NCBI GenBank assembly: GCA_965200625.1
Contig: OZ241375.1
Coordinates: 8,234 to 72,233, forward strand
DNA: 64,000 nt
Direction of reading: 5' to 3'
Source: Dehalococcoidia bacterium
GTDB lineage: Bacteria > Chloroflexota > Dehalococcoidia > Bin125
Shown here: positions 1,002-10,269 of the stretch, piece after piece
Numbering within the stretch: position 1 is the first letter of the stretch
Layout of the letters: every line of letters begins with the position of its first letter
Notes under the pieces: model-generated
What the model was told of the DNA's origin: nothing
The model's database searches: none
The model's input: only the letters and a program-made list of their open reading frames with translations
Translations under genes and position numbers: made by a program

Positions 1002-2993
1002 TCAGAGCGGCGTCGGCGACGGCGCCTGGCGCGTGGCGGCCGACGGGTCGTCGAGATCGAGGTAGTGCTCCATCGCCTGGAGGCTGACGGCGAGGAAGTT
1101 CCAGCCTTCTTCGTCCGTCTTCTTCTCGATCCTGTTGTAGTTGTAGCCGATCCACGGGTAGATGTAGTTGTAGCAGATGCTGCGACCGAACTGCCCGCGC
1201 TCCATGACGTACTCCTGCACGTCGCGGACCATCTGGTAGGCGGTTTCGTAGTCGAGCTCCTGCTTGGCGGCGATCAACGTCTCGTCGATGTAGGGGTCGG
1301 AGACTTCCCAGTAGTTGGAGCCGGCGCCGGTGGTGAAGGCGCCGATCATGTCGGCCCGCGCGTCGGGGATTTCGATGTTCGGAATCCAGCTGAAGAACGG
1401 GTCGAAGTCCTTGGCGATCCAGGACGGGATGATCTCCAGGTAGGGCTTGGTGATGCCGTTGAACTGGTCGGTGCCGAAGGCCTGGTTGAACATCTCGGCG
1501 ATGATGCCCGGCGTCGCCGACCAGGCGGCGCGGGAGGCCCAGAGTTCGGAGGTCACCCAGTCGATCTGGCCGAGTTCGGGACCGCCGGCGGCATCCCAGA
1601 GAGCGCGCGCCTCTTCGAGGTCGGCTTCCTTGTCGACGCGGTAGCCGGGGATCGTTTCCAGCTCTTCCTGCGGGATCGCCCAGGCTTCCTGCATCCAGGA
1701 GACGGGGCCGGAGACCTTGCCGAGGCCGTTGTGCAGCTGCTGGATCAGCTGGCGCCGGTTGATCGCCAGGTCGATGGCGCGGGTCAGGCGCAGGTCGTTC
1801 CAGGGCGCCTTGTTCGAGGGCGTGAAGATCGACACGGTGTTGGCGACGCCCTGGAAGGTGAGGTAGGTCTCGTCGATCAGGTCGTCGTGGATCGCCAGGA
1901 TCGTGTTCGGATCCGGGTCGGTCATCGAGTCGACCTGCTTCTGCTCGAAGGCGATGCGGTAGGCGTTGGGGTCCTGGAAGGTCTGCACCCAGACCCAGCC
2001 GTCGAGATGCGGTTTGTTGGGCAGGTCGTAGAAGTTGGGGTTCTGGACGGCGGAGATGCCCTCGCCCGGGTCCCAGCGGGTGAGGATGTTGGGGCCGGTG
2101 CCGATCACCTTGGAGGCGTCGACCTCGGTGTACTGGTCTTCGGTGCCGCCGACGAGCTCGGGCTGATTGATCAGGTTGAACTCGTTGGCGAAGCCCTGCA
2201 CGAAGGTGGCGTCGGGCTCGACCAGGTTGAGGCTGACGCTGTTGTCGACCTGGTCGATCGAGGCGACGCCGCCCCAGTAGGCGGAGCGGCCGAAGTTGCC
2301 GGCTTCCTCGCCGCTGGTCAGCAGCTTGTTGCGCTGGCGGTCGATGTTCCAGACGATGTCCTCGGTGGTCAGCGCGCGGCCGGCCGCGGCGGCCGGGTTG
2401 TTGGCGCCCGGGCCTTCGGCGTGCCAGGTGACGCCGTCGCGCAAGTTGAGCACGATGGTGGTCGGGTCGGGCGTTTCCCAGGTTTCCGCGAGGTCGCCGA
2501 CGAGGGTGCCGGTGTCGGGGTTGGCGAAGCGCAGCAGCTTGGACTGCACCCGCGCCAGCACCTGCAGCACCGGCGAGGCGACCGTGCGGTGCGAGTCGTA
2601 GGTCTCGTAGACGTTGGCCGACTGCTCAACGACCCAGCCGCCGTACTTCTTAGTCGAGGCGACCGCGGCCTGTTCCTGCATGGCCTGCTGCTGGGCCTGG
2701 TCTGCGGCGTCCTGCTCCTGGGCCTGCTGCTGCATGGCCTGTTGTTCAGCCTGCTGCTGCGCCTGCTGTTGCATGGCCTGCTGCTGTTGCTGCGGCTGCA
2801 TCGCCTGCTGTTGCATGGCCTGCTGCTGTTGCTGCTGGGTCTGGGCGACGGCCTGGCCGTCGTCGTCATCGTCGCCGCAGCCGACCAGCGCCAGGCCGGC
2901 CGCGCCGACGCCGGCGCGCGCCGAGGCGCGCAGGATGCCGCGCCGGCTCATCCGTTTGCGGTTCATCCGTTGCCAATAGGATCGCTCGCTCAT
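1002..2993 (-). CDS. ABC transporter substrate-binding protein, family 5 (peptide/nickel), Tat-signal lipoprotein with a Gln-rich linker
   Basis: ORF 1002..3041. N-terminus MSRRGILRASARAGVGAAGLALVGC has a twin-arginine motif plus a lipobox Cys. It is followed by QQQQQQAMQQQAMQPQQQQQAMQQQAQQQAEQQ low complexity and then a typical SBP_bac_5 body. Alternative starts at ~2966 or ~2951. Confidence 0.85.
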   Translation of the reverse strand: MSERSYWQRMNRKRMSRRGILRASARAGVGAAGLALVGCGDDDDDGQAVAQTQQQQQQAMQQQAMQPQQQQQAMQQQAQQQAEQQAMQQQAQEQDAADQAQQQAMQEQAAVASTKKYGGWVVEQSANVYETYDSHRTVASPVLQVLARVQSKLLRFANPDTGTLVGDLAETWETPDPTTIVLNLRDGVTWHAEGPGANNPAAAAGRALTTEDIVWNIDRQRNKLLTSGEEAGNFGRSAYWGGVASIDQVDNSVSLNLVEPDATFVQGFANEFNLINQPELVGGTEDQYTEVDASKVIGTGPNILTRWDPGEGISAVQNPNFYDLPNKPHLDGWVWVQTFQDPNAYRIAFEQKQVDSMTDPDPNTILAIHDDLIDETYLTFQGVANTVSIFTPSNKAPWNDLRLTRAIDLAINRRQLIQQLHNGLGKVSGPVSWMQEAWAIPQEELETIPGYRVDKEADLEEARALWDAAGGPELGQIDWVTSELWASRAAWSATPGIIAEMFNQAFGTDQFNGITKPYLEIIPSWIAKDFDPFFSWIPNIEIPDARADMIGAFTTGAGSNYWEVSDPYIDETLIAAKQELDYETAYQMVRDVQEYVMERGQFGRSICYNYIYPWIGYNYNRIEKKTDEEGWNFLAVSLQAMEHYLDLDDPSAATRQAPSPTPL
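2690..2860. repeat. imperfect CAG/CTG-rich 18-30 bp reiterations (encode the QAMQQQ units of the lipoprotein linker)
   Basis: Repeated ctgctgctgcatggcctg-like units are visible in the sequence. Confidence 0.6.
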
Positions 2994-3119
2994 CGATTCC
3001 TCCTGTGCCGAGCCTCCGCGCCCGCCGGCGGACTGGCTCATAAACTCTAACGATATCCTAAGCGCGGGTTACTGTGTTGTCGTTATCACGTCGGCGCGAA
3101 GCAATGGAGAGGAGCCGGG

Positions 3120-3437
3120 GTGGCCCGAGCCGTCCGCGAGCTAACGTTGCGCGCCGTGCCGATCTGGTTGCTGCGGCAGTATCTGGAGCAGCTGGGCGCG
3201 GCGGAGATCGCGCCGCCCAATCCCGGCGCGACCGATCCGGACGGCGTCGTCCGCCCCGACGGGGCGATGGCGGGCGAGGGCTGGACTGTCCTCTGGCGCA
3301 CTGAGCAGCGGTCGATGCATCCGCGTCTGCCGACGAAGATGGACGAGCATCACTTCGTCTTCACGGCGGAGTCGGAGGCGGCCCTGGAGTCATTGATGGA
3401 GCGCTTCATGCGCAAAGCCCATCGCGGCGGCGGTTGA
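3120..3437 (+). CDS. hypothetical small protein (copy A1 of a duplicated module)
   Basis: ORF track (GTG start). Third-codon positions are strongly G/C, consistent with coding. The C-terminal ~70 codons are ~95% identical at the DNA level to 4205-4415. Confidence 0.4.
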   Translation: MARAVRELTLRAVPIWLLRQYLEQLGAAEIAPPNPGATDPDGVVRPDGAMAGEGWTVLWRTEQRSMHPRLPTKMDEHHFVFTAESEAALESLMERFMRKAHRGGG

Positions 3438-3472
3438 GTTGGTATCGTTGGCGCAACCGGAGGAGCGCTCGC

Positions 3473-3691
3473 ATGACGACCGACGAACCAGCAGCCGACG
3501 AACGCCCCCTGCCACAAACCGTGGCGGAATGGGTCAAGGACCGGCGCGGCCCCATCCCGCCTGCCACTCCCGAAGTCGTGGACTGGGGTCTGATGACTCC
3601 GCGGGAGGTGCTCAGAATGCTGGCGCGGCAGATCAGGGAACGGCGGCTGGTCCTATACGAAGACGACGAAGACGGACGCGGCAAACAATAG
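3473..3691 (+). CDS. hypothetical small protein (72 aa, MTTDEPAADERPLPQ...)
   Basis: ATG-initiated sub-ORF of 3434..3691. Unique to copy 1, with weaker GC3 bias. Overlaps the 3' end of the convergent membrane gene by ~39 nt. Confidence 0.2.
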   Translation: MTTDEPAADERPLPQTVAEWVKDRRGPIPPATPEVVDWGLMTPREVLRMLARQIRERRLVLYEDDEDGRGKQ

Positions 3692-4117
3692 GACATCAAC
3701 CGCCCACAGCGCCGTCGCGACCGTGGTCATCTGGCGTTTGAATTGCAGCATTGGCTCATTGCGGCGAAATGCGGCCATGATCTGAATTCCGGCCCACTCG
3801 CGCTGTTCGGTGTCATCCAAGTCCTGACTGAGTGCCAACAGCGCGGGCAGTTCCGGCTGCAGGTTCATTCGCCGATCGAGATAGCCAACGAACGTCGTCA
3901 CAACCAGCAGGACGTAGACGAATCCGCCGGCAGCCCAGAGTCCGATTGCCGTGGTGGTGACGCTGTCGCGCTCAAAGCCCTGAAACGCGGCAAAGAGCAC
4001 CAGCAGCGCTGTCGCGGCGGTGAAGATGCCTGCCAGACGCGAATTCAGCTCACGCACCTGGGCCAGCTGCTGATCCAGCCGCCAGCGGGCGAGCTCGTAG
4101 TAGACCTGACGCACCAC
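3653..4117 (-). CDS. hypothetical membrane protein with 3 predicted TM helices (copy M1; SLATT-like topology, unconfirmed)
   Basis: ORF track. An N-terminal amphipathic helix ARWRLDQQLAQVRELNSRLAGIF precedes hydrophobic segments TAATALLVLFAAF, AIGLWAAGGFVYVLLVVTTFVGYL and TVATALWAVDVLLFAASVFVVFV. It is a paralogue of 4624..5148. Confidence 0.55.
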   Translation of the reverse strand: MVRQVYYELARWRLDQQLAQVRELNSRLAGIFTAATALLVLFAAFQGFERDSVTTTAIGLWAAGGFVYVLLVVTTFVGYLDRRMNLQPELPALLALSQDLDDTEQREWAGIQIMAAFRRNEPMLQFKRQMTTVATALWAVDVLLFAASVFVVFV

Positions 4118-4136
4118 TCTGCTCCTGAGCAGCAGC

Positions 4137-4209
4137 CTATGGCAGACCGATCATGGCGGCGGTGCGCGTTTTGAGCAGCCCGGCGTGGACCCGCGCACCT
4201 TGGGCGCGA
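4137..4209 (+). other. relic 5' fragment of the CoA-transferase gene (upstream region plus codons ~39-48, with an internal ~120 nt deletion) at the duplication junction
   Basis: ctatggcagaccgatcatggcggcgg and ttgagcagcccggcgtggacccgcgcaccttgggcgcg match 5137-5162 and 5287-5322 of the intact caiB-like gene. Confidence 0.6.
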
Positions 4210-4415
4210 CCGATCCGGACGGCGTCGTCCGCCCCGACGGGGAGATGGCGGGCGAGGGCTGGACCGGCCTCTGGCGCACTGAGCAGCGGTCGATGCATCC
4301 GCGTCTGCCGACGAAGATGGACGAGCATCACTTCGTCTTCACGGCGGAGTCGGAGGCGGCTCTGGAGTCGCTGCTGGAGCGCTTCATGCGCAAAGCCCAT
4401 CGCGGCGGCGGTTGA
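4185..4415 (+). pseudogene. chimeric duplicate of small ORF A: a caiB-like 5' fragment (VDPRTLGA) fused to the C-terminal 70 codons of A
   Basis: ORF track. The DNA at 4205-4415 is near-identical to 3230-3437, whereas the N-terminal codons derive from the CoA-transferase 5' region. Confidence 0.35.
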
Positions 4416-4623
4416 GTTGGTAAGCTGGCCGTGTAGCGGAAGAGGACCGGTGCGATGGATGAGGCGCCAGGCAGCGAGTCCAGTCGGGACGTTGCGGACG
4501 AGGTCTCGCCGTAGCAGGCGGCGAAGCCGCGCCGGCTCGGGCCAGCGTCGGTTGATCGAGGCCTGCCGTTGCCTTGGGATGGGCTGCGATTCCTGTGGTC
4601 AACGTGGCGCGAAGATCGACGAC

Positions 4624-5100
4624 TCAGAGCACAGAGCTCAGGGCAACCGCCACGAGCACGATGACATCGATCCCCCACAGCCAGATAGCAATGCCGGCAT
4701 AGATGGCCTTGCGCCGGATGTAGCCCTCGTTCGCATCGACGGCGTTGACAATCTCGTCCGCCACAAGTTGCTTCAAGCCGCTCTCTGCGTCATCGCCGGC
4801 GGAGTCGAGTGTGTTCAGTTCTCGTAGGACGCCCAGGTTGGGGCCGAGTTCCAGTCTTCGGTTTCGTAGTCCCAGAATGGTGGCGAGCACCAGGAGCGCG
4901 TAGATCGCTGCGCGGGCACCGAGAAGCGCAAATGTGGAGTTTCCGAGGTCGTCGTTGAATCCCTGAAAGGCGGCAAACAGGACGAGTAACGCGGTTGCCG
5001 CCGTGAACACTCCCGCCAATCTCGAATTCAGCTCGCGGATTTCCGTGAGCTGCTCGTCCAGACGCCACCGGGCGATGTCGTAGAACACCGGCCCCGTCAT
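4624..5100 (-). CDS. hypothetical 3-TM membrane protein (copy M2, paralogue of 3653..4117)
   Basis: ORF 4624..5148. The likely start is MTGPVFYDIARWRLDEQLTEIRELNSRLAGVFTAATALLVLFAAFQGF, with a conserved N-terminal ~45 aa and a divergent remainder. Confidence 0.55.
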   Translation of the reverse strand: MTGPVFYDIARWRLDEQLTEIRELNSRLAGVFTAATALLVLFAAFQGFNDDLGNSTFALLGARAAIYALLVLATILGLRNRRLELGPNLGVLRELNTLDSAGDDAESGLKQLVADEIVNAVDANEGYIRRKAIYAGIAIWLWGIDVIVLVAVALSSVL

Positions 5101-5180
5101 CGATCCTCCGCCCAGCTGGCTGCTCGCAGCCAATGGCAGACCTATCATGGCGGCGGACTGTTGTTTGAGGGGAGCTGGAG

Positions 5181-6392
5181 ATGGCCGGTCCGTTGGCTGG
5201 GGTGCGTGTCTTTGATCTGACGCTATGGATGGTCGGGCCGTGGGCGTCGATGCAGCTGGGCGCGTTGGGCGCGGATGTGATTCATATTGAGCAGCCAGGC
5301 GTGGACCCGCGCACGTTGGGCGCGGGCGTGCCGCCGGCGATCAATGGCACCTCGGTCGGCTACATCACCTGGAACATGAACAAGCGCGGACTCTTCCTCG
5401 ACCTCAAGTCGCCGGCTGACCGCCAGACCGCCTACGAGCTGCTGCAAACCTGCGACGTGTTCCTGATCAACATGCGGCCCGGCGCGGCGGAGCGGATGGG
5501 CGTGGGTTACGAACAGGTCGCGGCGGCGAATCCGAACATTGTCTACACCGCGATCACCGGTTGGGGCGAGGTCGGCCCGATGCGCGACAAGCCGGGCGCG
5601 GATGTGCAGTGTCAGTACTTCACCGGCTTCTGGTCGGTGAGCGGCAAGCGCGGCGGCTGGCCTGAGGTCTACCGCCACTTCACGCAGATGGACGCGAGCA
5701 CCGGCAACGTCGCCGCGCAGGCGGTGCTGATGGGTCTGCTGGCGCGCAAGCGGACGGGCCGCGGGCAGCGCATCCACGTGGGGATGCTGCGCGCCGGGAT
5801 GGCGCTCCAGAGCGGGAGGATCGCGGAGTATCTGGCCAGCGGCGTCCAAGCGCCGCCGTTGGGTTCGGCCGGCTACGCCGCCGCGCCGGATCAGGCGTTT
5901 CAGTGTCAGGGCGGCGACTGGATCGGCGTCGCAGCGACCTGCGAGTCGGAGTGGCGGCGGTTGTGCGAGGCGCTGGCCGCGTCGGAGGCGGAAGGTCTGG
6001 ACGACTTGGCGTCTGATCCCCGATTTGCGACAAACCTGGATCGCGTCGCCCACCGCGACGCGCTGGCGGCGATCTTGCAGAACGCCTTCGCGCAGCGGCC
6101 GCGGCATTACTGGATGCTGCGCCTCGCCGACGCGGGCGTGCCTTGCGGCTATCCGATTGCGTTTGAGTCGCTCCAGCATCACGCGCAGGCGATTGAGAAT
6201 GGCTATCTGCGCGAGGTGACGACCTCAGGTTGGGGCGACGTGTGGACGGGCGGGCCGCCGTGGACGTTGTCGCGCACGCCGGCGCGCTGGACGGGCACGC
6301 CGCTGCCGGGCGAGCACACGGGCGGCATCCTCGACGAGCTGGCGCAGCGGCAGGCGGCGGTTGCAGAGCCGACGCCGGTGATCGGCGACTAG
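5181..6392 (+). CDS. CoA-transferase family III (CaiB/BaiF-like)
   Basis: ORF track. MAGPLAGVRVFDLTLWMVGPWASMQLGALGADVIHIEQPG...INMRPG is a canonical family-III N-terminus. Confidence 0.9.
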   Translation: MAGPLAGVRVFDLTLWMVGPWASMQLGALGADVIHIEQPGVDPRTLGAGVPPAINGTSVGYITWNMNKRGLFLDLKSPADRQTAYELLQTCDVFLINMRPGAAERMGVGYEQVAAANPNIVYTAITGWGEVGPMRDKPGADVQCQYFTGFWSVSGKRGGWPEVYRHFTQMDASTGNVAAQAVLMGLLARKRTGRGQRIHVGMLRAGMALQSGRIAEYLASGVQAPPLGSAGYAAAPDQAFQCQGGDWIGVAATCESEWRRLCEALAASEAEGLDDLASDPRFATNLDRVAHRDALAAILQNAFAQRPRHYWMLRLADAGVPCGYPIAFESLQHHAQAIENGYLREVTTSGWGDVWTGGPPWTLSRTPARWTGTPLPGEHTGGILDELAQRQAAVAEPTPVIGD

Positions 6393-6393
6393 C

Positions 6394-7563
6394 GTGCCCG
6401 GTCCGCTGGAGGGTTACCGCATCATCGAGATCGCCGAAGGCGTCGCCGGCCCGTACACGGCGATGTCGCTGGGCGACGCCGGCGCGGACGTGATCAAGGT
6501 CGAGCCGCCGACGGGTGATCGGGCGCGCGGCTGGGCGCCGCCGGTTGAGGGCGGCGGCTCGGCGCTGTTCCAGGCGCTCAACCGCAGCAAGCGCGGGATC
6601 ACGCTGGACTGGTCGTCCGAGCGCGACATTGAGATCGCGCAGCAGTTGCTGGGTAGCGCCGACGTGGCAATCGTCGACAAGGCCGGCCTGCCCGCTCCTC
6701 TGCGCTGGGAAGCGCTGGACGCTCCGGGACTAGTCTACTGCGCGCTCTCCGGATTCGGGCCGCGCGGGCCCTGGCGGGAGCGGCCGGCGTCCGAGCTTGC
6801 GGCGCAGCTGGCCAGTGAAGCGACGGCGTCGCTGGGCAGCATTGGAGAGGAGCCGGTGCGGCACGGCGGCGATATCGGCTCGATGTACGCCGCCAACTAT
6901 GCGATTCAGGCGATCTGCGCGGCGCTCTACGCGCGCGACGACTCCGATCCGTCCGCGCCGACGGGCGGGCAGCGGATCGAGGTCTCGTTGTTCGGCAGTC
7001 TGCTAGCGATGCGCTCGACGCTCTGGGTGGCGCTCTCCAATCCCGATGAATGGTGGGGCTTTCACCTCGATTCCTACGTCAAGCCGCCCGATCACGGCTA
7101 TCAGTGCCGCGATCTGCCGATCTACTTCTCGCTGGCGCGCATTCGCGGGGATGCGTTTGAATCGTTGATTGACGAGTTGGGTATGGACTGGGCGCGGGCG
7201 CATCCCGACTTCGCGCGGCTGCGCACGGACGGGGCCGGCGGCGCGGGCCGCTATGCGGCGGAGCTCAAGCAGCTCTGGGAGCGCGGGTTCTCGAACTTCG
7301 ACGCCGAGCGAGTGATCGAGATCGTCGAGCGGCACGGCGGCTGGGCCTTCTCGATGCACGACTACGAGCGGCTCAGCCGCGATCCGCAGGTGGCGGCGGT
7401 GGACGCGATTATCGAGGTGGAGCAGGGCGACGGTTCGTCGCTGCGACAGGTTGCGCCGCCGTGGGACTTTGCCGGGACGCCGGTCGCGGCGCCGCGTCCC
7501 GCGCCCGCGCTGGGCGAGCATCAGCGGGAGGTGCTGGAGGAGCTCGACGTTCTGCGCCGCTGA
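6394..7563 (+). CDS. CoA-transferase family III (second copy)
   Basis: ORF track. MPGPLEGYRIIEIAEGVAGPYTAMSLGDAGADVIKVEPP. Confidence 0.9.
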   Translation: MPGPLEGYRIIEIAEGVAGPYTAMSLGDAGADVIKVEPPTGDRARGWAPPVEGGGSALFQALNRSKRGITLDWSSERDIEIAQQLLGSADVAIVDKAGLPAPLRWEALDAPGLVYCALSGFGPRGPWRERPASELAAQLASEATASLGSIGEEPVRHGGDIGSMYAANYAIQAICAALYARDDSDPSAPTGGQRIEVSLFGSLLAMRSTLWVALSNPDEWWGFHLDSYVKPPDHGYQCRDLPIYFSLARIRGDAFESLIDELGMDWARAHPDFARLRTDGAGGAGRYAAELKQLWERGFSNFDAERVIEIVERHGGWAFSMHDYERLSRDPQVAAVDAIIEVEQGDGSSLRQVAPPWDFAGTPVAAPRPAPALGEHQREVLEELDVLRR

Positions 7564-7571
7564 CTAGCTGA

Positions 7572-8018
7572 TTAGCTGCGGGCGGGACGGAAGACGGGCA
7601 GCGTGATCTCGTCGTTGACTTTGCGGAAATCGACCTCGACCGCGAGGTCGCAGCTGACGTCCCGGTCTTCGATCCCGACCAGCGTCGAGTACATATAGGG
7701 GCCTTCTTCGAGCTTGATCAGCGCGACGGTGTAGGGGTACTCGTCCGGCGACCAGCCGGGGAAGTACTGCTGCCACATCCGGATCCACGACCAGACGGTG
7801 CCATGCCCGGAGATGGGGCGCCACTCCCAGTCGTCCTGCAGACAGCGCGGACAGGCCTCGGCCGGAGGGAACCAGGGCAGGTCGCAGATGTTGCAGAACT
7901 GGATCTGGAGGATGCCCTCGCGGCAGCCGTCCCAGAAGGGCTTGGTCAGGCCCAGCACGGGGGGCAGCGGCTTGTCGTAGCTGTGTCCGGCGGGTTGGTC
8001 GTCGGTGGAGGTGGTCAT
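7572..8018 (-). CDS. Zn-ribbon/OB-fold DUF35 protein (partner of the thiolase-like protein)
   Basis: The likely start is MTTSTDDQPAGHSYDKPLPPVLGLTKPFWDGC. CxxC...CxxC zinc ribbon (CNICDLPWFPPAEACPRC). Overlaps the upstream stop (ATGA). Confidence 0.8.
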   Translation of the reverse strand: MTTSTDDQPAGHSYDKPLPPVLGLTKPFWDGCREGILQIQFCNICDLPWFPPAEACPRCLQDDWEWRPISGHGTVWSWIRMWQQYFPGWSPDEYPYTVALIKLEEGPYMYSTLVGIEDRDVSCDLAVEVDFRKVNDEITLPVFRPARS

Positions 8019-9193
8019 CGGTCGTCTCGCTTCAGGATGTGGCCGGTGGCGAGCGGGGCGGCGCAGGCGTAGAGGCCGTACTGCGCGTTGTGAACCTGCC
8101 GCTCGCCGCATTCCTGGCGCAGCTGGCGGACGGCCTCGACGTGCAGCGCCCAGCCTTGCATGTAGGACTCGCTGGTGTGGCCGCCGCCCGTGTTGAGCGG
8201 CAGCTCGCCGCGCAGGCCGATCCGCTCTGGCGTGATCCAGTCGCCGCCCGCGCCGCGTTCGCAGAAGCCCATCCCTTCGAGCGTGAACAGCATCGTCGGG
8301 GTGAAGTTGTCGTAGAGCTGGGCGAAGGCGAGATCCTCGCGCTGCGCCTCGGAGACGGCGAACAGGTCGTCCGCGATCTGCGACATCGGTTCGTGCCAGA
8401 AGTCGTCGGCGACGTAGACAGGGGTGATGTCGGAGGCCTGCGAGGTGGCGTGGATCAGGACGGGCGTGTGCTTGAGGTCGCGGGCGCGCTCGGCGGAGGT
8501 GACGATGAAGCAGACGCCGCCGTCGTTGATCAGGCAGTAGTCGAGCAGGCAGAGCGGCTCGGCGATGAAGCGGGCGGCGTGGTAGTCGTCCATCGTGATC
8601 GGCCGCTGCATGACGGCGTTGGGATTGAGCGCCGCGTTGGCGCGGTTGGAGATTGCCAGGTGGCCGAGCGCCTCAGTCGTGGTGCCGTAGCGGTACTGGT
8701 GGCGGCGGAACATCATCGAGGTCACCGCGCCGGGCGAGGTCATGCCGTAGGGCGCTTCAAACATCGCCTGGGTGGAAATGCCGAGATTCTCGCCGCCGTA
8801 GCGCGCGCCGGCGGAGAGGCCGTTGTTGCCGTAGATGCAGGAGACGACGTCGGCCAGCCCGTTGGCGACCGCGAGCGCGGCGTACTGCAGGGCGATGCCG
8901 GACTGACGGCCCTCGCCGGGCAGGACGTTGACGAAGCGCGGATGGCGCAGGCCGATCATCTCGCACATCCGCCCATAGTGGGGCAGCCGCGAAACGATCA
9001 CGCCGTCCACGTCAGTGCGCCTGAGGCCGGCGTCGCGCAGCGCCTCACGAAAGGCGATCAGCCCCAGCTCATAAGCGGAGCGTTCCGGGTCCAGGTCACG
9101 GTAGATAGCGCCAAACTCAGTCGTGCCCACCCCAACAATGGCGGTCTGGTCCTGCAGGTTGCGCAAGGCGCTGCGGTCGGGTTGAGTTGTCAT
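8015..9193 (-). CDS. thiolase-like (SCP-x/nonspecific lipid-transfer type) protein
   Basis: The likely start is MTTQPDRSAL at ~9193. Thiolase fold (TAIVGVGTTEFG...). The ORF-track N-terminal extension to 9427 runs through a repeat element and is rejected. Confidence 0.85.
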   Translation of the reverse strand: MTTQPDRSALRNLQDQTAIVGVGTTEFGAIYRDLDPERSAYELGLIAFREALRDAGLRRTDVDGVIVSRLPHYGRMCEMIGLRHPRFVNVLPGEGRQSGIALQYAALAVANGLADVVSCIYGNNGLSAGARYGGENLGISTQAMFEAPYGMTSPGAVTSMMFRRHQYRYGTTTEALGHLAISNRANAALNPNAVMQRPITMDDYHAARFIAEPLCLLDYCLINDGGVCFIVTSAERARDLKHTPVLIHATSQASDITPVYVADDFWHEPMSQIADDLFAVSEAQREDLAFAQLYDNFTPTMLFTLEGMGFCERGAGGDWITPERIGLRGELPLNTGGGHTSESYMQGWALHVEAVRQLRQECGERQVHNAQYGLYACAAPLATGHILKRDDR

Positions 9194-9254
9194 GATCGGA
9201 GTATAGGAAGGGCCACGGTCGCGGCCCTTGGTTGGGGTACGGTGCTGGGTGCTC

Positions 9255-9495
9255 AAGACTTCCCCCTTTGGGGGAGCGCTGACCACTTTCGTCATTGCCG
9301 CGCGCCGCCGCGGCAATCTCGATGCGTACAGCAGCGAGGTCCGTGCTCGACGCGGCGAGATACCCGCGACGTAGTCGCGGGTATGACGGGGGAGGGGGCG
9401 CGGGTATGACGGAGGAGGGTGTGGCAAGGGTGCGCGGCGACCCCGCTTCAGTCGCTGCGCGACAGCTTCCCCCCAGTGGGGGGCAGCGAGAGAGC
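9255..9495. repeat. composite REP/BIME-like repeat (hairpin units GTCATTGCCGCG..CGCGGCAATCTCG, ATACCCGCG..CGCGGGTATGACGGAGG, CCCCGCTTCAGTCGCTGCGCGACAGCTTCCCCCCAGTGGGGGG)
   Basis: Near-identical copies at 20775-20985. The element overlaps the 3' end of the CDS at 9448-10269. Confidence 0.8.
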
Positions 9496-10269
9496 CAGCG
9501 CCTCGAGGGCGGTTTGGAATTGGTGGCGGAGGGTTTGGAGGCGTTGGGGGTTGACTTGTTGGGTGGCGGGGTGGAACCAGGGTTCGCTGAGGTACCAGTT
9601 GCGGTTCATTTCGATTTGGATCCAGGGTGGGCCGCCTTCTTTGTAGCGTTGGCCGTGGCGTCGGGTGATGTGGCCGCCCTGGAAAGGGTCGTTGAGGTGG
9701 ATTTGGTCGGGAGGGCAGTGGAAACTTTGGCTGAGGGCTTGGGCGAGTTCGTGGAGGAGGGCGGCGGGAGCGGTTTGGCCGTTTGCGTTGCTGAGGCAGA
9801 AGCGCGGGCGCGGCTCGCCGGGGTGGGGCGCGATGGCGGGCGCGTACTCGGCCATTGAGTGGCAGTCGAGCGCCAGCCGTACCTCCGGGCGCGCCGCCAG
9901 CTGCTCCAGGCGTTGGTGATAGGGGCGCCAGTAGCGGGTCAGCAGGGTCTGCGTGAGGGCGGCGTCGGGGCCCGCGCCGTGCTTCCAGACGGGGACGCGG
10001 TCGGCGGTCAGCGACTTGACCACGCCATCGGGCTGCGCCGGCGGGAGCGCGGTCGGAGGGCGATTGAGGTCAACGACGGCGCGCGCGATGTCAGTCTGCT
10101 GGACGGCGGCGACGGCGCGGCCCAGGTCGTAGATCTCGCGCGTGCAAGCGTCGCCGTCGCTGAAGATGTCGCGCGGTCGGAGGGCGGAGTGGGGCGCGGC
10201 CTCGGGCGGGACGCGGTCGCCGCCGTGCGGGATCGAGAGCAGGATCGGTAGAGGCACGGCGCGGCTCAC
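9448..10269 (-). CDS. N-formylglutamate amidohydrolase (FGase) family protein
   Basis: ORF track. PILLSIPHGGDRVPPE resembles the N-terminus of the FGase/PF05013 family. The C-terminal ...GGKLSRSD is encoded by the repeat element. Confidence 0.65.
   Translation of the reverse strand: MSRAVPLPILLSIPHGGDRVPPEAAPHSALRPRDIFSDGDACTREIYDLGRAVAAVQQTDIARAVVDLNRPPTALPPAQPDGVVKSLTADRVPVWKHGAGPDAALTQTLLTRYWRPYHQRLEQLAARPEVRLALDCHSMAEYAPAIAPHPGEPRPRFCLSNANGQTAPAALLHELAQALSQSFHCPPDQIHLNDPFQGGHITRRHGQRYKEGGPPWIQIEMNRNWYLSEPWFHPATQQVNPQRLQTLRHQFQTALEALALSLPPTGGKLSRSD

Follow-up and report, generated by a model that had tools for sequence, protein, structure and literature searches.

The 64,000-nucleotide stretch analysed here (hereafter the window), from contig OZ241375.1 of a Dehalococcoidia bacterium (GenBank assembly GCA_965200625.1), carries two short cassettes in tandem between ORF1, which encodes a small DUF1952-type protein, and CoAT1, which encodes a family III CoA-transferase. 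Each cassette (A and B) pairs a small gene, s72, with a convergent gene for a membrane protein of three transmembrane (TM) segments, memA or memB. The interval between ORF1 and CoAT1 is a chromosomal hotspot, either vacant or occupied by a single compact cassette of two genes that can be exchanged. With moderate confidence, we regard it as a conflict hotspot at which two ancient cassette alleles were stacked by microhomology recombination, the membrane protein being a predicted conflict effector.

Results

An optional two-gene cassette at a fixed chromosomal site

Related loci (denoted by L numbers) share the backbone SBP-ORF1-gap1-CoAT1-CoAT2-gap2-OB-fold-thiolase, where SBP is a solute-binding protein, and the neighbouring genes in the window match SBP_bac_5, DUF1952, CoA_transf_3 (twice), an OB-fold protein and thiolase. 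In a scan of species-representative genomes, ORF1 was present at 41 of 41 related loci, and CoAT1 is syntenic in most. The distance from the ORF1 stop to the CoAT1 start (gap1) is 46-49 bp in 10 genomes (L006, L010, L013, L014, L017, L023, L027, L030, L034 and L037) and ~730-890 bp in about 13, where it contains an s72-like gene and a convergent membrane gene. The remaining sites hold non-coding DNA, a MarR gene with an isochorismatase gene (L035) or a gene for a 454-amino acid (aa) helix-turn-helix protein (L036). Because gap1 varies while ORF1 is always present, ORF1 belongs to the core and s72 with the membrane protein constitutes the optional unit. A preliminary description of this DNA had instead taken the 105-aa ORF1 product and the membrane protein as the module, overlooking both s72A, the real partner, and its TAG-interrupted counterpart s72B. 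The arrangement of a conserved housekeeping locus, for which that description proposed to search related genomes, is found for ORF1 and not for the cassette, which is variable, single-copy or absent. Among ~45 related loci, only the window has two cassettes at gap1.

The s72A product contains the motifs RPLPQTV..EWVKD.RGPIPP..VDWGLMTP, and its gene overlaps memA by 39 bp at the 3′ ends. Open reading frames (ORFs) with the s72-like motifs [VI]xRGLxxPW and/or RPLP[RQL]T lie beside the membrane gene in L001/16, L002, L003/4, L005/9, L008, L021, L025, L031, L039 and L050, and s72B still carries VDRGLPLPW despite its in-frame TAG. The ratio of non-synonymous to synonymous divergence (dN/dS, or omega) for s72, calculated over few sites, is 0.29-0.81. 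Distant members of the membrane family occur without an s72-type partner.

Exchange of cassettes is apparent from L003/4, L005/9 and L007, in which the flanks are 90-96% identical in DNA and yet three cassette classes are found, with identities of 38-40% between classes and 96-99% within a class. Within a class, synonymous divergence (dS) of the membrane gene is 0.06-0.16, below the 0.29-0.40 of the flanking CoAT1; therefore, cassettes moved between lineages after the flanks had diverged. Within an allele class, an omega of ~0.1 shows strong purifying selection on the membrane gene.

CoAT2 and the OB-fold gene enclose a second hotspot, gap2, which is empty in the window (8 bp, 7564-7571) and 14-27 bp long in 10 loci. 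A further 21 loci have a gap2 of ~700-940 bp with a distantly related member of the 3-TM family, matching the family hidden Markov model (HMM) with E-values of 2e-11 to 5e-23 (L003-L005, L007-L012, L026-L028, L030, L031 and L034-L040, at ~8.7-11.0 kb). The partner at gap2 is a small, lysine-rich, convergent protein ending RRPLPRTIxKNGA, which has the RPLP[RQL]T motif in common with s72 and lacks the C-terminal half of s72.

Frameshifted, truncated or remnant membrane genes were also observed at the gap1 hotspot (L031, 6655-7034; L038, 6624-6884; L042, 6253-6414). Such decayed copies indicate ongoing cassette decay and turnover.

Table 1. Features of the ORF1-CoAT1 interval, in window coordinates. 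SD, Shine-Dalgarno sequence.
Feature	Position	Strand	Size	Description
ORF1	3120..3437	+	105 aa	DUF1952/MoaD_arch fold; left flank of hotspot, outside the cassette
s72A	3473..3691	+	72 aa	Hydrophilic; partner gene of cassette A; SD GGAGGAG at 3460-3466
memA	3653..4117	-	154 aa	Intact ORF with SD; N-terminal amphipathic helix and 3 TM; cassette A
CoAT1 remnant	4132..4208	+		Composite of CoAT1 upstream region and codons ~36-48, with 122-nt internal deletion
ORF1′	4185..4415	+	76 aa	In-frame chimera of CoAT1 codons 41-48 and ORF1 codons 36-105; without SD
Recombination junction	4203..4208	+	6 nt	Microhomology GGCGCG, common to CoAT1 (5319-5324) and ORF1 (3225-3230)
s72B	4455..4664	+		Cassette B counterpart of s72A; in-frame TAG at 4512-4514; motif SVDRGLPLPWDG kept (six-frame motif scan)
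memB	4624..5100	-	158 aa	Intact; SD GGAGGA; second allele of the PycTM-like protein
CoAT1	5181..6392	+		Family III (CaiB/BaiF-type) CoA-transferase; core gene, right flank of hotspot

The membrane proteins resemble signal-activated effectors

The preliminary description of two convergent ~155-aa proteins, each with an amphipathic N-terminus and three hydrophobic helices, is borne out by two intact ORFs. Their products are 42% identical overall, with ~80% identity over residues 1-49 and ~25% over the remainder, in agreement with the conserved N-terminus and divergent remainder noted there. In memA, hydrophobic segments were located at ~27-47, 55-80 and 127-153, and the AlphaFold2 model is all-helical (helices 2-46, 55-79, 90-97 and 102-153), with a predicted local distance difference test score (pLDDT) of 82.6. 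These features suggest an N-in topology in which ~45 cytoplasmic, helical residues precede TM3.

An exhaustive profile search returned 406 cluster representatives at E<=1e-3, mostly 150-200 aa long, the ~400 clusters of the family being defined at 50% identity. A word-indexed profile search with 132 of the sequences added few new proteins. Residues Q17, P88, N120 and K127 are conserved across the family. The memB product matches the family HMM with E=7e-49, and the closest relative of memA is protein P0002 (61-63% identity), the L002 protein having 57%.

Scans of the window proteins and 132 family members against Pfam and NCBIfam gave no consistent model, with only scattered, sub-threshold matches to Anthrone_oxy, Erg28, Rv2743c/PspM, 8xMP, DUF2207_C and holins. 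The PADLOC models for PycTM, the membrane effector of Pycsar systems, were matched far more widely: PDLC02363 by 90 of the 132 members at E<=0.01 (best E 1.5e-7) and PDLC02364 by 51. Furthermore, the CBASS 2TM model was matched by 23 members and the reverse transcriptase (RT)-associated SLATT model by five. Since none of 10 reversed-sequence controls matched PycTM at E<=0.1, the similarity is not an effect of composition. Precomputed annotations of P0006 and P0104 also read 'PycTM (weak)'. Taken together, these profile matches suggest a remote relationship between the family and signal-activated membrane effectors (Pycsar PycTM and CBASS 2TM). The SLATT-like effector proposed in the preliminary description pointed in the right direction, given the PycTM, 2TM and RT-SLATT matches. 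No significant Pfam match to the SLATT clan (SLATT_1-6 and DUF4231) was obtained, with best E-values of 0.022-0.77. DUF4231, which we take to be a member of this clan, was matched weakly by seven of the 132 members (best E 0.022), and SLATT_1 by one second-hotspot protein (E=0.77).

Phage_holin_3_6 was matched by seven of the 132 members (best E 0.0046). The setting of a class I 3-TM phage holin, a lysis cassette or prophage, is lacking: there are no phage genes nearby, and no relatives were found on IMG/VR viral contigs. A locus search with a tighter family alignment found two metagenome loci and no viral one.

Anatomy of the tandem array

Comparison of the window with itself revealed a 220-nt repeat, 4203-4422 against 3225-3444, with 97% identity (seven differences), which stops 7 nt beyond the ORF1 stop; a ~95% repeat of 3230-3437 and 4205-4415 had been reported earlier and is real, with slightly wider limits and a higher identity. 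On the minus strand, the 5′ ends of memA and memB align with 71-72% identity (3951-4106 vs 4934-5089).

Between memA and the second repeat copy lies the composite CoAT1 remnant. Its upstream piece (4132-4175) is 82% identical to 5126-5169, 5′ of CoAT1, and its coding piece (4171-4208) is 95% identical to 5287-5324 (CoAT1 codons ~36-48, EQPGVDPRTLGA). The 122 nt absent between the two pieces are bounded by TTGAG repeats at 5165-5169 and 5287-5291. At the junction with ORF1 sequence, the bases on either side of GGCGCG are CoAT1-like (G4202) and ORF1-like (A4209), and the two reading frames are joined in phase. The chimeric second small ORF and its deletion of ~120 nt, deduced in the preliminary description from the 5′ end of the caiB-like gene, are thereby placed on exact coordinates.

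The chimera, ORF1′, is 97% identical to ORF1 in DNA, with four synonymous and three non-synonymous differences in 204 nt (dS 0.09). Two of the replacements, A49E and V57G, introduce residues that occur at those columns in none of 18 full-length homologues aligned, and among the ORF1 homologues searched the chimera (P0073) was found in this genome only. ORF1′ is probably a pseudogene. An assembly artefact was ruled out, as the copies differ far too much and the fusion at the junction is clean and in frame.

The remnant includes a copy (4141-4164) of a conserved motif, GACC(T/G)ATCATGGCGGC. The motif GACCTATCATGGCGGC is situated 25-45 nt 5′ of the CoAT1 start, at 5135-5156 in the window and at ~6320-6345 in L006, L010, L014 and L017, and is kept in empty and filled sites alike, with a T-to-G change in the junction copy (4141-4164). 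It may serve the CoA-transferase operon as a -10 region or as an operator. A promoter and terminator scan gave nothing above chance, and an Rfam scan of the entire window gave no match.

Age and origin of the two cassettes

Synonymous divergence was estimated by Nei-Gojobori counts, with memA and memB compared over codons 5-47, their most conserved part. The proportion of synonymous differences (pS) there is 0.70 (dS ~2) and is saturated, as against 0.08 (dS 0.09) for the ORF1 3′ copies. Because positive selection cannot inflate synonymous change, the memA/memB split is far older than the flank repeat. Moreover, memA and memB are not sisters in a neighbour-joining tree, each being closer to proteins of other genomes than to the other. 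The simplest reading of these sequences is that the array would consist of two pre-existing, anciently diverged cassette alleles that were stacked, rather than of a duplication followed by fast divergence. Of the duplication through the caiB 5′ end that had been proposed, the tandem repeat with its CoAT1-derived junction stands; a plain duplication does not, with a dS of 0.09 in the flank and ~2 between the membrane genes. The label 'duplicated, fast-evolving' likewise does not survive these values or the omega of ~0.1 within a class.

The 97% identity of the flanks, together with membrane proteins that differ most in their C-terminal two thirds, might have been expected from a recent tandem duplication of one module and very fast, positively selected divergence outside the membrane-protein N-terminus. 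This is contradicted by the synonymous divergence, which is high even in the conserved N-terminal codons; the low omega within allele classes also opposes it, and the conservation of the N-terminus is a family-wide feature rather than a recombination boundary, so that we find such a history barely credible. An ancient tandem duplication in situ, after which ORF1′ and the CoAT1 remnant stayed close to the full-length genes through gene conversion, would account for the saturated dS between memA and memB and for a 97% tract that ends exactly at the expected limit of homology, 7 nt past the ORF1 stop. It is nonetheless improbable, as none of ~45 related loci has two copies at the site or a chimeric ORF1′, the CoAT1 remnant, although non-functional, retains 82-95% identity to its source, and memA and memB each have closer relatives elsewhere.

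For the stacking of two alleles, DNA from a close relative, with the order ORF1(3′)-s72B-memB-CoAT1, would most likely have joined the resident CoAT1 5′ end and been resolved by downstream homology; alternatively, one copy of a fresh duplication may later have been replaced through recombination in the flanks. The join itself would have been illegitimate and mediated by the GGCGCG microhomology, between CoAT1 codon 48 and ORF1 codon 36, with an in-frame CoAT1::ORF1 chimera as its first product. The 122-nt deletion between the TTGAG repeats would then have removed the ribosome-binding site and start of this chimera, and during later decay ORF1′ would have gained A49E and V57G, and s72B its stop codon.

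ORF1, CoAT1 and the surrounding genes

ORF1 has 66 homologues at 59-85% identity, all in metagenome-assembled genomes (MAGs) of Dehalococcoidia/Chloroflexota, many of which look sponge-associated as judged by MAG names. Nearly all 66 carry a precomputed PF09189 annotation; the window protein itself scores 15.1 bits against this Pfam model, the cut-off being 22. The AlphaFold2 model (pLDDT 84.6) has as its best Foldseek match 1V8C (probability 1.0, TMq 0.63, 23% identity), a MoaD-related protein of Thermus thermophilus, the fold of ORF1 being like that of its C-terminal DUF1952 domain. Homologue annotation and fold match together place ORF1 in DUF1952/MoaD_arch. In 1V8C this domain is fused to a MoaD domain, whereas ORF1 stands alone, without a MoaD/ThiS domain, and ends in RGGG, which is invariant across the homologues. 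This C-terminus recalls the Gly-Gly tails of ubiquitin-like or sulfur-carrier proteins. A search of Protein Data Bank (PDB) sequences with the ORF1 profile returned streptavidin noise only.

CoAT1 gave a full-length match to PF02515 (CoA_transf_3; E=1.2e-93, residues 5-380). The gene for the family-5 solute-binding protein (1002-3041, minus strand) contains a long, imperfect CTGCTG/CAGCAG repeat at 2668-2830, encoding a glutamine-rich linker (QQQQQAMQQQ...) that sits after the signal/lipobox region. The rest of the window (9448-64000) holds mostly metabolic genes, along with genes for one N6_N4 DNA methylase and for two helicases (UvrD-type and DEAD-box), and no known defence system was recognised there in complete form.

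Discussion

Considering the profile matches and the hotspot pattern together, we infer that the cassette encodes a PycTM/2TM-like effector without a cyclase, partnered by a small protein, conflict-effector function being what the sequence comparisons best support. The cassette would most likely be a cyclase-independent conflict module in which the membrane protein, once triggered, oligomerises and compromises the membrane in abortive infection or defence; s72 may act as its cognate regulator or sensor, in place of the Pycsar cyclase and nucleotide signal. In L021, ORF1 is followed by a gene for a 981-aa Eco57I/MmeI-type restriction-modification (RM) enzyme (6347-9292) and then by an s72-membrane cassette (9500-10180). 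In L043, 19 kb away in the same genome, an ORF1 3′ fragment (91% identical; 5981-6186) abuts a GmrSD_N-HNH nuclease gene (6231-7331). As L021 and L043 both show such neighbours, ORF1 3′ fragments recur at defence-gene insertions. Elsewhere, a distantly related family member comes after two CHAT proteins in L046, and transposases adjoin family members in L045 and L047/48.

Several observations weigh against a conflict effector or against the proposed stacking. No cyclase or other signal generator was found near ~50 loci or among the matches listed for 43 window ORFs, which cover the top 25 families. The scores of the window proteins themselves against the PADLOC PycTM models are marginal (memA E=0.006, memB no match), PF18967 was not reached in Pfam scans of the window proteins or the 132 members, and Foldseek of the memA model against the PDB returned nothing beyond generic helical bundles (best E 0.29). 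A catabolic CoA-transferase/thiolase cluster surrounds both hotspots, and a third family member in L049 (6001-6525; same genome as L004) sits beside a paralogous thiolase-OB-CoA-transferase cluster, a placement that reflects either a functional link to such clusters or simply their abundance. The pseudogene state of s72B while memB is intact counts against s72 as an indispensable cognate antitoxin. Finally, the search for a donor, in which a lone memB-type cassette would lie between near-identical flanks, was negative, the fetched loci reaching a flank identity of ~85% at best; for this reason, import and duplication followed by replacement are not separable.

A toxin-antitoxin or addiction cassette, in which a 3-TM membrane-depolarising toxin would be held in check by the small convergent protein or an antisense transcript and the pair would spread as a selfish element, accords with a compact two-gene unit whose 3′ ends converge and overlap with no terminator between them, with its presence/absence polymorphism and horizontal exchange, and with the transposases beside distant members. 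We consider this unlikely, since memB persists with a good SD although its s72B is disrupted, s72 has a C-terminal half that the small proteins of the second hotspot lack, distant family members come without any such partner, and the similarity is specifically to signal-activated effectors. The positions of family members between ORF1 and CoAT1, between CoAT2 and the OB-fold gene and beside thiolase in L049, among neighbouring genes that are metabolic, could also be taken to mean that the protein serves the catabolic CoA-transferase/thiolase pathway as an accessory in the membrane, for example as a channel for substrates or as an anchor, and varies with substrate range. This role appears distinctly improbable: several genomes in which the cluster is complete (e.g., L006, L013, L014 and L017) have the gene at neither site, allele classes do not track the flanking enzymes, the membrane gene is transcribed opposite to the operon, and distant members of the family are instead found beside transposases, CHAT proteins or RM genes. 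These genomes have very many CoA-transferase paralogues, and in the related genomes sampled the paralogous cluster of L049 shows that there is more than one such cluster per genome, making chance adjacency likely.

Among known systems, the predicted conflict module is closest to Pycsar, whose PycTM is described as a membrane-disrupting abortive-infection effector acting after cyclic-pyrimidine signalling (PMC11224242). The proteins agree in size (~155 aa vs a 154-position PADLOC model) and in having an N-terminal helix followed by TM helices, and show a consistent remote family similarity to PycTM (PDLC02363/02364, PF18967), the window proteins themselves being at or below significance. However, no PycC class III cyclase is present in the gene lists of L001, L002 and L045-L050 or in the window neighbourhood, and the partner here is a 40-75-aa hydrophilic protein encoded on the opposite strand. 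The effectors of CBASS 2TM/SLATT systems are likewise small helical membrane proteins with an N-terminal helix and paired TM helices, but no CD-NTase, SMODS, SLOG or reverse transcriptase gene is nearby, and no locus examined contained the nucleotidyltransferase of a CBASS operon. With toxin-antitoxin modules the likeness is one of architecture only (a small, convergent, overlapping partner), and s72B is a pseudogene. The site itself is comparable to the P2/P4 hotspots of Escherichia coli in its fixed position between conserved genes (PMC9122126), in being either empty or occupied by alternative or unrelated genes (of RM and GmrSD type, among others), and in the exchange of cargo by recombination in the flanks. 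It differs in that the flanks are chromosomal metabolic genes rather than phage or satellite genes, and in that the cargo is usually one tiny two-gene cassette with no integrase.

The window catches a recombination intermediate in which the microhomology junction, the chimeric gene and the steps of decay are readable, making the mechanism of exchange concrete. It also calls for caution in annotation, the 76-aa 'DUF1952' gene at 4185-4415 being a recombination scar and not a paralogue. In an uncultivated Dehalococcoidia lineage, the comparison brings out a defence-style hotspot whose allele classes are discrete and ancient and have been exchanged between lineages. A family for which Pfam and NCBIfam have no model would join the PycTM/2TM/SLATT effectors as a cyclase-less branch, and its candidate protein partner could show how a pore is controlled without a nucleotide signal. 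More tentatively, s72 and the PycTM-like 3-TM protein may possibly form an undescribed, self-contained two-gene defence system, with s72 as trigger or brake of the membrane pore. If so, ancient exchangeable allele classes would be kept at fixed hotspots of Dehalococcoidia, and the stacking of two would broaden specificity.

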